In this document: positions 48,913 through 51,018 of the stretch, one piece after another
How the letters are laid out: each line of letters starts with the position of its first letter
Numbering within the stretch: position 1 is the first letter of the stretch
The notes under the pieces: model-generated
What the model saw: the letters and a program-made list of their open reading frames with translations, nothing else
Told to the model about the DNA's origin: nothing
Databases searched by the model: none
Program-made: the position numbers and the translations under genes
Source: a virus
Taxonomy: Duplodnaviria; Caudoviricetes
IMG/VR virus record: IMGVR_UViG_3300037361_000044
Span: 64,001-128,000 of that record
Strand: one strand, 5' to 3'
DNA length: 64,000 nucleotides

Positions 48913-49104
48913 TCACCCTGCGGCGACCATGTTCGAACGTGCCCGCGACTGGCGCACTACTTCCAGTAGGCACGCTAGGAGATACTTGGGGCGGCTTTGT
49001 ATCGGCAAGTGCTTGGTGTCCCATGCTGTGCTCACATGGCCACATCCAGTGCATTGCCAAACAGCGCCGTCCCGGTGAATCTCCCCTTTACAGATCGTAC
49101 TCAT
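48913..49104 (-). CDS. Small Zn-ribbon protein
   Basis: C...WQCTGCGH; start uncertain. Confidence 0.5.
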   Translation of the reverse strand: MSTICKGEIHRDGAVWQCTGCGHVSTAWDTKHLPIQSRPKYLLACLLEVVRQSRARSNMVAAG

Positions 49105-49150: not shown

Positions 49151-49351
49151 TCACACCAACTCGCACTGTCGAACTCGTTGCTTCAGCAAATCGAGACTAG
49201 GGTCATCTTGAACCAACACGCCCAGCTGCATAGCCAGGCCCCGTAACCGCGTGTACGAGAGGGAGTTCAGGAAGCTCTCGCTCACTTCAATCACGTCACG
49301 GGGCCCCACTCTAGTGCAGTTCGGCCAGGTCTCGATCTCTACTATTTTCCC
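49151..49351 (-). CDS. -1 frameshift extension of 49342..50205
   Basis: Open frame from the GGGAAAA heptamer to TGA at 49153-49151; encodes LNSLSYTRLRGLAMQLGV (HeH/Rho-N-like). Confidence 0.6.
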   Translation of the reverse strand, partial: GKIVEIETWPNCTRVGPRDVIEVSESFLNSLSYTRLRGLAMQLGVLVQDDPSLDLLKQRVRQCELV

Positions 49352-50205
49352 TTGTTGACCTTGACCTTGGTGCCCTTGGGCTTGGCCGCAGGTACCTCCT
49401 CAGCCGGGTCGGCGCTGATGAATTGAGCGATCACGTTCTCCGTGGCGTTCAGCTCCTCCATAGCAATCTGGATGACGTCCGCCGCGTTGGCACCCAGTGC
49501 CTGCTCCGCAACCTTCAGGGATACGCTCGTTCCAATCGCCGTGTGTCGGTAGCCAAGAACGATGGAGTCTTGCAGTGCGGCCATGTTGTCGGCCAGCCCT
49601 TGAACCACACCAGCGATGTCATTCACGGTCTTCTGCAGACTCTGAACTACACCGAGAAGCTGAGCACCAGCTTGCGGTGCCGCTGCAGCAGTAGCTGGGT
49701 TACGCAGTGGGGCGGCAGCTGTGGCTGTTGCTGGCGTGCGTTGAGCAGCCGGGGCAGCCTTGGGGGCAGCCACAGGAGCGCGTGCTGGGACCCCACCGGT
49801 GGTGCGGCGCACGGGAGGCGGAGGAGGTGCTTCCTCTTCCTCGTCGTCGACCTCTTCCTCGGTCTCCTCGTCAACTTCTTCCTCGTCAACTTCCTCTTCC
49901 TCCTCTTCTTCCTCGGGAGGCGGGGCCTTCTTGGCCTTGTTGTTCACGGGGGTGCGCGCAGGAGCAGCGGGAGCTGCCGTGCCCTTCTTGGCCTTCTTGC
50001 CGCCGCGTGCCTCGATAAGCGCATCGCTGACTTGTTGGCACTGCGCCGCAAAGTCCTGGGCTAAGAAAGCAGTGCGGGCAGCTTCGTCGGCACCATCGAA
50101 GATACCAAGCTTCTGGGCAAGCACACGTACGTTGAATCGGCCGATGGTGGCGAGTTCAGCTGGATCGGTAGGGGCGGTTTCAATGGAGGCGGGGGTAACA
50201 GTCAT
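49342..50205 (-). CDS. Low-complexity acidic/Ala-Pro-rich protein with coiled coil
   Basis: 287 aa with a poly-Glu tract; ends AAG GGA AAA TAG. Confidence 0.8.
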   Translation of the reverse strand: MTVTPASIETAPTDPAELATIGRFNVRVLAQKLGIFDGADEAARTAFLAQDFAAQCQQVSDALIEARGGKKAKKGTAAPAAPARTPVNNKAKKAPPPEEEEEEEEVDEEEVDEETEEEVDDEEEEAPPPPPVRRTTGGVPARAPVAAPKAAPAAQRTPATATAAAPLRNPATAAAAPQAGAQLLGVVQSLQKTVNDIAGVVQGLADNMAALQDSIVLGYRHTAIGTSVSLKVAEQALGANAADVIQIAMEELNATENVIAQFISADPAEEVPAAKPKGTKVKVNKGK

Positions 50206-50594
50206 GGTGTTCTCGTTTTCCTTATCAGTCGATGTTTTTGAACGAAGGGTTCGTTCCCGTGCAGGTCGATAATACATGCAATTACTTGCATGTCGGTACA
50301 ACCGAAGCACGGTCTAGGGTTGGGGGTTACTTTGTCCTTCAAGTGCCTTGCAGGGCAAGTGATTTGTGTTTCTATCTTCTTCCAGTGTTCGTGGAAGAAC
50401 GCGATGAACGCGTTCCGCCAGCCGTGCAGTACATGGTCCTCTTCCGTGTACGGCGGGGGCTCCTTCCAGCCCTCCAGGTAGGCAATCATGCATTCCGTCG
50501 CCTCGTTTGGCCTGACTAGGATGCCTGCCCTAATACATGTCTGGTAGAGCTCGGTGCGGTTGAACCTGTCATAGACTGAGGTTGAGCGCGTCAA
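50202..50594 (-). CDS. Hypothetical Cys-containing protein
   Basis: ORF coupled by ATGA to the next gene; start uncertain. Confidence 0.6.
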   Translation of the reverse strand: MTRSTSVYDRFNRTELYQTCIRAGILVRPNEATECMIAYLEGWKEPPPYTEEDHVLHGWRNAFIAFFHEHWKKIETQITCPARHLKDKVTPNPRPCFGCTDMQVIACIIDLHGNEPFVQKHRLIRKTRTP

Positions 50595-51018
50595 GTGGCG
50601 ATCCCTCCTTCTCGACGTCCCAGATCCAGATGTCCGTCTGCTCCTTCGGCCCCTGCACGGAGACGCCACCTATCGCATGGAAGTGTGAGTCGTCCACTGA
50701 CGTCACTTCGGCCAGTACATCTTCCAGCAACTTGAAGCGATTGGTGGTGTCAGCGTGCTTATACCTGGCCGCAGCGCTTTTTGGCCAGGTCACATTTAGC
50801 AGGTCTGTGAGGGTAAACCTGTAGAAAAGGCTGTAGGGACGGTTTGGCACCATCCCCTGAAGCACGAAGGCGTACTTCTTGGTCAGGTGGGCCGTGGCCT
50901 CGTTCTTGAACTTCCTTCCCTCCTTAGTAAGGTACCGCTTGGTACCCTTTGCCAGCTTGACGGTACCGTAGGCGTGGTTGGTGGAGACGGGGAGCATCGG
51001 AAGCACAAGGTGCCTCAT
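50569..51018 (-). CDS. RusA-like Holliday junction resolvase
   Basis: PVSTN, DxxNxxKxxxD and DD motifs. Confidence 0.8.
   Translation of the reverse strand: MRHLVLPMLPVSTNHAYGTVKLAKGTKRYLTKEGRKFKNEATAHLTKKYAFVLQGMVPNRPYSLFYRFTLTDLLNVTWPKSAAARYKHADTTNRFKLLEDVLAEVTSVDDSHFHAIGGVSVQGPKEQTDIWIWDVEKEGSPLDALNLSL

Follow-up and report, generated by a model that had tools for sequence, protein, structure and literature searches.

At the 3' end of a minus-strand gene in a 190-kilobase (kb) soil phage, a slippery heptamer stands directly before the stop codon and the -1 frame stays open beyond it. The locus raises the question of whether ribosomes change frame there and make a second, longer protein, in a gene that does not appear to be a tail assembly chaperone. 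The gene lies in a 64-kb part of an IMG/VR virus record of 190,298 base pairs (bp) that is rated complete; this part, which is the whole stretch of DNA analysed, is called the window below. On the comparison of sequences, we consider it highly likely that a programmed -1 ribosomal frameshift, made by tandem slippage on G GGA AAA, operates at this site and has been conserved along with an RNA structure. A frameshift giving a short and a long isoform of a non-chaperone protein had been proposed from an earlier reading of the window (the original prediction). The proposal gains support from the retention of the heptamer in relatives, from an extension that has no start of its own, and from two covarying stems in the RNA downstream.

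The heptamer and its conservation

The anatomy of the locus is given by the following features (ORF, open reading frame).

49345..50205, minus strand: 0-frame ORF of 287 codons (P0001), with its ATG at 50205 and the final sense codons AAG GGA AAA (49353-49345)
49345..49351, minus strand: slippery heptamer G GGA AAA (X XXY YYZ) in the 0-frame register; the relatives have G GGA AAA or G GGA AAC
49339..49344, minus strand: tandem 0-frame stops TAG TAG (TAG 49344-49342 and TAG 49341-49339), directly 3' of the heptamer
49151..49345, minus strand: -1-frame extension of 64 sense codons plus TGA (P0002; TGA 49153-49151), reading IVEIETWPNCTR...CELV

The positions that had been assigned to the ORF, its stop, the heptamer and the -1 frame all proved correct on the sequence. 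The heptamer falls in the X XXY YYZ register that was claimed for it, because the ORF ends AAG GGA AAA TAG TAG, and the -1 frame is indeed open for 64 codons up to the TGA at 49151. Read from the sequence, the 0-frame product has 287 amino acids (aa) and the predicted frameshift product has 351 aa.

Heptamers of the form XXXYYYZ are not rare; we counted 236 of them on both strands of the window. Only the heptamer at 49351-49345 combined at least 100 open codons upstream with a stop of the 0 frame no more than 5 codons away and a -1 frame that stays open for 50 codons or more. By this window-wide scan the site is more than a chance occurrence. The same thresholds gave no second frameshift candidate anywhere in the window, the plus-strand tail and baseplate genes included.

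A word-based protein search with the 287-aa product returned only two close homologues, of about 73-80% identity and with the same KGK end; the contigs of both bear an identical GGGAAAATAGTAG. The low-complexity linker of the protein swamped this search, and the relatives were therefore found through the extension. Searches with the extension peptide gave seven loci in IMG/VR and four further loci in metagenomes, while an exhaustive HMMER search of 1.84 billion representatives led to seven more distant ones. In total, 19 distinct related loci on viral and metagenomic contigs were available, 12 of them forming a core and the distant ones being designated L020 to L026. The long contigs of the relatives measure 186-196 kb, which defines a clade of phages of similar genome size. 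No match to the 287-aa protein was obtained by tblastn against the INPHARED phages, and a profile search of viral contigs with an alignment of this protein found nothing.

Conservation of the heptamer in homologues was a test that the original prediction had named for itself. We observed G GGA AA(A/C) in the 0-frame register in 18 of the 19 loci. All 12 core loci have it in this register (G GGA AAC in nine, G GGA AAA in three), with the 0-frame stop 0-3 codons past the heptamer. The same arrangement of heptamer and stop is present in L021 to L026, where the extensions are about 35-50% identical and the upstream proteins barely align. The codon preceding the heptamer differs among the loci (AAG, GAG, GCG, CAG, CCG or CTG) and its third base is always G. 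The 0 frame encodes a basic tail in the window and an acidic one in most relatives, and the sole invariant residue in this C-terminal part of the 0-frame alignment is Gly286, the glycine of the heptamer.

The sole exception, L020, reads AGGAAAA. It is a 524-nucleotide (nt) ENA contig with a coverage of 0.8x, and since, besides this low coverage, its upstream half resembles an unrelated aminotransferase, it is probably a chimeric or error-containing assembly.

The extent to which the two open frames overlap narrows down the place of the frame change further. Within the overlap, 11 of the 12 core loci have no other in-register heptamer. The overlap is as short as 13 nt in L014 and measures 22, 25 and 28 nt in L016, L011 and L005, respectively, and each of these four contains only this heptamer; the overlap of L014, for example, is tga AGC GGGAAAC GAG taa, that is, the heptamer and 3 nt on each side. 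Overlaps of 13-28 nt therefore pin the frame change to the heptamer.

It could be argued that a single ORF was split by a homopolymer indel, through an assembly or sequencing error or through decay of the gene; homopolymer runs are error-prone in some sequencing chemistries. The same frame arrangement, however, recurs in diverged sequences from at least 18 assemblies, made independently in different studies and from different samples, and always with the stop 0-3 codons on. For practical purposes the comparative data refute error or decay, and we give this explanation practically no chance.

The tandem TAG TAG was seen in the window and in L001, L002, L003 and L010; the other relatives have one stop only, which aligns with the second TAG and which the heptamer precedes by 1-3 codons. 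Relative to the extension, the position of the stop is thus fixed, and it is the distance from the heptamer to the stop that varies.

Coding of the extension and the RNA structure downstream

The programmed frameshift predicts that the -1 frame is translated right from the heptamer. A different explanation of the same ORFs is that there are two separate genes: the extension would be a protein of about 52 aa started at GTG 49309 or at another internal codon, maybe coupled to termination of the upstream gene, with the heptamer being incidental. The segment by which the two can be told apart is this one.

49316..49327, minus strand: W-P-x-C motif of the extension, upstream of GTG 49309; the next x-R completes W-P-x-C-x-R

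Gene callers do annotate a 52-aa gene in L001, and proteins of 45-77 aa from this family stand in the databases. The window offers GTG 49309 as the first canonical start of the -1 frame, with further GTG codons at 49294 and 49285, and in L021, L022 and L023 a GTG or ATG is located just before WPG. In L021 and L023, the GTG that was called as the start falls on or close to the Val/Ile in G-K-R-V/I, a conserved segment past the heptamer.

On the other hand, most relatives have no ATG, GTG or TTG ahead of the invariant W-P-x-C-x-R. In the more diverged core relatives the first such codon past the heptamer is codon 16 (L005), 24 (L009 and L013), 27 (L006), 35 (L011), 40 (L008) or 44 (L014). Nevertheless, the pattern V-x-V-x-x-W-P-x-C-x-R at codons 5-15 is conserved, with W, P, C and R invariant in 12 sequences. 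The codons behind W-P-x-C-x-R (codons 8-15) vary synonymously: among the 12 sequences Pro is written with four codons, Cys with two and Arg with four, including AGA versus CGN. A motif that is retained through synonymous codon changes must be translated in the -1 frame. WPG(C) persists even in the distant relatives.

The substitution pattern extends along the whole frame. Among codon pairs with a single difference, synonymous versus non-synonymous changes numbered 175 versus 102 at codons 3-15 and 852 versus 202 at codons 29-67. Of the 12 differences between the extensions of the window and L001, eight leave the amino acid of the -1 frame unchanged and four replace it conservatively (N/S, F/Y, L/M, K/R); two synonymous changes and one conservative change fall upstream of GTG 49309. 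One Val codon of the -1 frame overlaps the 0-frame stop and for this reason is GTA in all 12 sequences.

Since W-P-x-C-x-R is conserved ahead of any start, a separate gene from GTG 49309 fails as an explanation. It would also leave the in-register heptamer of 18 loci and the 13-28-nt overlaps without a reason. In the window sequence no Shine-Dalgarno (SD)-like sequence was seen before GTG 49309, and no promoter-like site was found ahead of the extension. A start belonging to the extension itself was the second test named by the original prediction, which accordingly stands on this point, and we regard two separate genes as very unlikely.

In the HMMER search the extension appeared only as the 45-77-aa fragments called from internal starts, and no credible in-frame fused homologue was present among the 1.84 billion representatives. 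Two longer proteins, P0007 and P0010 (452 and 603 aa; expectation value E of 1e-9 to 1e-10 against the extension profile), were judged spurious; they reached this E through 7-9 repeated weak matches. They look like translated tandem repeats of unknown origin rather than homologues.

A second layer of conservation was found in the RNA. The two helices concerned have the following arms.

49329..49343, minus strand: helix 1, 5' arm; its 10-bp core begins 6 nt past the heptamer and its outer pairs 1-2 nt past it
49185..49197, minus strand: helix 1, 3' arm, in the S-L-D-L-L codons; it closes a domain of about 160 nt
49295..49307, minus strand: helix 2, 5' arm, in the GGGGCCCCGUGAC region
49235..49247, minus strand: helix 2, 3' arm, made of an Arg codon and the next variable codon

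The original prediction had described three nested stems. The outer pairing, 49338-49329 with 49197-49188 (10 bp), and the inner one, 49305-49295 with 49247-49237 (11 bp), are present both in the sequence and in its minimum free energy (MFE) fold. RNAalifold, run on 8 and then on 12 sequences, predicted two helices that coincide with these outer and inner stems. The middle stem, CTGCA-C-TAG with CTA-TGCAG, is present in the window and is not conserved, with 56% of cells paired, no better than in shuffles.

The pairs of helices 1 and 2 were counted against two kinds of controls, partners slid by 1-3 columns and 500 shuffles. We found 90.4% of the cells paired, compared to 27-38% in the slid controls, and changes on both sides in 11 of 20 pairs, compared to 2-4. 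The covariation score was 0.443, compared to at most 0.12 in the slid controls; none of the 500 shuffles reached the observed value. A codon-based alignment gave the same result. The covariation check that had been suggested was therefore positive for two of the three stems, which carry compensatory changes.

All 13 pairs of helix 1 form in the window. The 12 core loci form 8-13 of them, and L024 makes 12 of the 13 from a different sequence. Compensatory columns are, for example, 21/169 (CG five times, AU three, GC two, GU one) and 22/168. The domain closed by helix 1 spans most of the extension ORF and contains helix 2, where 6 of 8 pairs changed on both sides; one of them is CG in four sequences, GC in three, UA in three, GU in one and UG in one. 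In helix 2, variable amino acid positions pair with an invariant Arg that uses six different codons, and these covary with the 5' arm, as expected for selection on the RNA. No Rfam family was found at the site.

What the helices do is a separate matter. The RNA domain and the adjacent stop codon are probable stimulators of the frameshift. The frameshift could, however, be real and the helices serve another end, such as stability or processing of the mRNA at the 3' end of the operon or regulation of the small gene downstream, with the heptamer and the stop being sufficient for slippage. A distance of about 130 nt separates the arms of helix 1, an unusual span for a stimulator; the spacing from the heptamer varies; and the most distant relatives retain the heptamer and not the mapped helices. 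Furthermore, many lambda-type G/GT sites work without strong structure (general knowledge, from the review PMC5009743). Yet in each of the 13 sequences with helix 1, its 5' arm begins 1-8 nt past the heptamer, where a stimulator would be expected. We see a role other than stimulation as the less probable one, though it deserves appreciable weight.

The register and the RNA bear as well on transcriptional slippage, in which the polymerase would insert or omit one base at the G3A4 or G3A3 run and part of the mRNAs would thereby encode the fusion in a single frame. The two products would then be the same, and a site with a homopolymer would be conserved in the same way. The runs, however, are only 3-4 nt long, with G3A3C the commonest form, and productive sites need homopolymers of about 6-9 nt or more (general knowledge, consistent with PMC5009743). 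The strict X XXY YYZ register and the conserved RNA structure downstream fit ribosomal slippage instead, and slippage of the polymerase appears to us extremely unlikely, even more so than a separate gene.

The two predicted products and how they might arise

Both predicted products would contain the 287-aa protein, for which an AlphaFold 2 (AF2) model shows three parts. Residues ~10-68 form an N-terminal four-helix domain (predicted local distance difference test, pLDDT, ~90) with the signature TAP...GRFN.R.LAQELG.F. Residues 72-177 are a disordered linker that is K-rich, acidic and Pro/Ala-rich and that varies widely among relatives in length and composition. Residues 179-263 form a C-terminal helical hairpin or coiled coil (pLDDT ~83), followed by the basic tail ending K-G-K. 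Within the linker we noted an extreme acidic run of E/D with interspersed V (49780-49930, minus strand; residues ~95-135), with K-rich and Pro/Ala-rich flanks. The run is found in the window and in L001 to L003 and L010, where it is longer still, and is absent from the relatives of 215-230 aa.

In the VIA structural comparison of the full-length model, generic coiled coils filled the list, and they are the only matches of the C-terminal hairpin. For the N-terminal domain, a PDB sequence search suggested YrbA/BolA at E 0.004; this match is at chance level and conflicts with the all-helical model, and it was rejected.

What the longer product would add is mainly the following domain.

49154..49285, minus strand: SAP/HeH-like (Rho-N/LEM-like) domain of the extension (from the AF2 model, VIA and the ESM Atlas); it includes the invariant LGVLVQDDP loop

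The AF2 model of the extension has three helices (residues 25-30, 33-43 and 53-65), with pLDDT 68-82 over residues 21-60. Its top VIA match among 48,161 PDB representatives is 1a62_A, the Rho N-domain (Z 5.5; root mean square deviation 1.6 Å over 44 residues), followed by LEM domains (emerin, LAP2) and SAP domains (Hcc-1, MKL1, Ku70, PIAS1, FAN1). A search of the ESM Atlas with the extension led to SAP, Rho_N and Ydc2/A22-type resolvase clusters; Ydc2-type resolvases carry a SAP domain. The absolute scores are low and the theme is consistent, and we accept for the modelled extension a HeH-type fold, that is, helix, extended loop, helix. In the models, the extension superposes on residues 1-44 of Rho, on the LEM domains of emerin and LAP2, and on several SAP domains. 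It differs from these families in the lack of a profile match, in the low Z for a 40-residue motif and in the WPxC segment, which has no counterpart there. SAP/LEM/Rho-N-type domains are common on recombination and repair proteins such as Ku70, FAN1 and the Ydc2-type resolvases.

The sequence profiles give a different picture. The Pfam SAP, Rho_N and HeH profiles matched none of eight extension members at E up to 10, and membership in these families is therefore unsupported at the level of sequence profiles. Scans of Pfam, PHROGs and NCBIfam with the 287-aa protein and the extension returned only low-complexity noise; Foldseek against PDB and BFVD gave nothing at E <= 0.001 for either model; and ESM Atlas feature searches came back blank. 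A PDB sequence search brought up CstF-50 for the extension, which was dismissed as a chance-level match. The HeH/Rho-N-like helix pair foreseen in the original prediction is thus borne out at the level of fold and not at that of sequence profiles. It had further been suggested that the extension echoes the N-terminal motif of its own protein: a profile match between the two does exist, and it is weak (hhalign P 0.0014, probability 17%).

The frameshift gene is the second-to-last gene of a minus-strand operon that encodes a UvsX-like recombinase, a resolvase (phrog_2002), a Cas4-like exonuclease, a 218-aa protein, RusA and a 155-aa protein. On its 3' side there is a small Cys-rich ORF and then the convergent plus-strand structural genes. 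The same order of RusA, a small gene and the frameshift gene is found in L021. The gene had been assigned to a replication module, which does not hold in the strict sense: with a UvsX-like recombinase, a Cas4-like nuclease and two resolvases, the operon is one of recombination. This location, convergent with the structural genes, agrees with the claim that the gene is not a tail chaperone. No chaperone family of Pfam, PHROG or NCBIfam matched the 287-aa protein or the extension; as these families are very diverse, a member could escape such scans.

From these observations we infer the following course of events. When a ribosome stands at G GGA AAA, its P site would hold tRNA-Gly, paired with GGA, and its A site tRNA-Lys, paired with AAA; most relatives offer AAC to the A site instead, which tRNA-Asn would read. 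The base of the ~160-nt RNA domain, 1-6 nt downstream (49343-49329/49197-49185), together with the adjacent stop, would hinder forward movement. A fraction of the ribosomes, set by the rate of slippage, would then re-pair both tRNAs on GGG AAA and read 64 codons of the -1 frame as far as the TGA at 49151, while the remaining ribosomes would terminate at TAG TAG.

The 287-aa and 351-aa forms would share the N-terminal helical domain, the disordered linker and the coiled coil, and only the 351-aa form would gain the C-terminal WPxC segment and the SAP/HeH-type domain. Through the coiled coil, short and long forms may co-assemble in recombination. The frameshift rate would set the share of subunits that carry the extra HeH module, which is probably nucleic-acid- or partner-binding.

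Several points weigh against this interpretation. The 351-aa product is a prediction from sequence comparison. AAC in the A site was a weak shifter in synthetic constructs in E. coli (Atkins et al. 2016, PMC5009743), and as AAC is the commonest A-site variant here, the efficiency could be low. The window as well as L021, L022 and L023 carry a -1-frame GTG or ATG, and some independent initiation is possible there. With respect to the RNA, the MFE fold of the window, at -68.6 kcal/mol (z = -2.3 against shuffles), is modest when taken alone, and the pair counts were made on the same alignment on which the structure was predicted, which somewhat favours it. The spacing from the heptamer to helix 1 varies, from 1-2 nt to the outer pairs in the short type to 8 nt in the type with a two-codon insertion. 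Mapping by alignment columns fails to find the helices in the five loci that are most distant, and the MFE folds of the six most distant loci have no common architecture, apart from L024.

Neither was a conserved SD-like stimulator, of the dnaX/IS911 kind expected about 10-14 nt upstream of the heptamer, found across the family. Sequences such as GAGGAG or GGAGGA occur in L008, L009, L014 and L025, the window has only AAGG (-3.3 kcal/mol), and the spacing ranges from 6 to 18 nt. This signal is confounded by the Glu codons of the acidic tails.

A more far-reaching idea is that the ~160-nt RNA domain acts as a tunable switch. Its signal might be, for example, the temperature, a factor of phage or host, or the HeH product itself bound to its own mRNA, and during infection it would set the ratio of the N-terminal-only form to the form with the added HeH domain. 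We hold this to be decidedly unlikely. If true, a widespread clade of soil phages of ~190 kb would have an autoregulated recoding circuit among its recombination genes.

Comparison with known systems and neighbouring genes

The closest parallel in the slip site is the lambda G/GT-type -1 frameshift of tail assembly chaperones (Levin, Hendrix and Casjens 1993; Xu, Hendrix and Duda 2004; both as cited in PMC5009743). The heptamer class is the same, and the slip site is located at the very end of the upstream ORF. As in lambda, a shared N-terminal body would be accompanied by a minority product with an extra C-terminal domain, at a fixed ratio. Of the heptamers in this class, G GGA AAG is a highly shift-prone form (PMC5009743), and GGGAAAC has been predicted as the tail-chaperone site of Burkholderia phage KL1 (PMC3483164). 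Unlike the lambda genes, however, the present gene belongs to a recombination operon that runs leftward and converges with the structural genes, and there is no tape measure gene next to it; it shows no recognisable similarity in sequence or fold to the chaperone families, and it has a downstream RNA structure supported by covariation.

In E. coli dnaX (gamma/tau), a gene of DNA metabolism is likewise the site of -1 tandem slippage, with two isoforms that have a common N-terminal body, and an RNA structure downstream that acts there as a stimulator. The dnaX heptamer is A AAA AAG, and the dnaX shift truncates the protein, whereas the present one would add a folded domain. Also, dnaX has a conserved SD-like stimulator upstream, while the SD-like elements of the present family vary in strength and spacing.

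The orfA-orfB pair of IS3/IS911 elements is similar in that a startless ORF is expressed only as a fusion and that a heptamer is followed by a structure. There, however, the genes encode transposases, the heptamer is A AAA AAG and orfB is long, compared to a 64-codon accessory domain in the present case.

Phage -1 frameshifts outside the chaperones that place a C-terminal extension on part of the molecules are those of the capsid genes of T7 (10A/10B) and of Lactobacillus phage A2 (Garcia et al. 2004, as cited in PMC10885494). They differ from the present gene in that the products are structural proteins, the slip sites are other ones, and the genes are non-homologous.

To our knowledge, tail assembly chaperones account for nearly all frameshifts annotated in tailed phages, and early or DNA-metabolism genes provide few cases. 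The mechanism itself is textbook (PMC5009743); what sets this locus apart is the class of the gene, the deep conservation, and a long-range structure supported by covariation. For the whole clade of 186-196-kb phages the annotation would need to be corrected, since the 45-77-aa 'genes' in the databases would be fragments of a trans-frame product. The locus is also a natural system in a bacterial virus where G GGA AAC and G GGA AAA alternate at one site, with a long-range RNA structure that offers itself as a testable stimulator of frameshifting. The heptamer G GGA AAC is best known from eukaryotic viruses. The case also suggests that the short-to-long isoform ratio of a HeH-bearing coiled-coil protein matters for phage recombination.

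Two neighbours of the frameshift gene deserve a remark. The small ORF on its 3' side (48913-49104, minus strand) encodes 63 aa from ATG 49104, with GGAAAGG before the start, and begins 47 nt past the stop of the extension. Its Cys residues at positions 5, 18 and 21 give it a resemblance to a zinc ribbon or rubredoxin, and a scan of this ORF against protein families gave only a chance-level rubredoxin-like match; the ORF is conserved in L001 and L002. On the other side, the 155-aa ORF (50202-50669, minus strand), if read from its first GTG, overlaps the RusA-like gene (50569-51018, minus strand) by 100 nt. Its true start is probably located further downstream, because the syntenic genes in L001 and L021 encode 130 and 114 aa, respectively.

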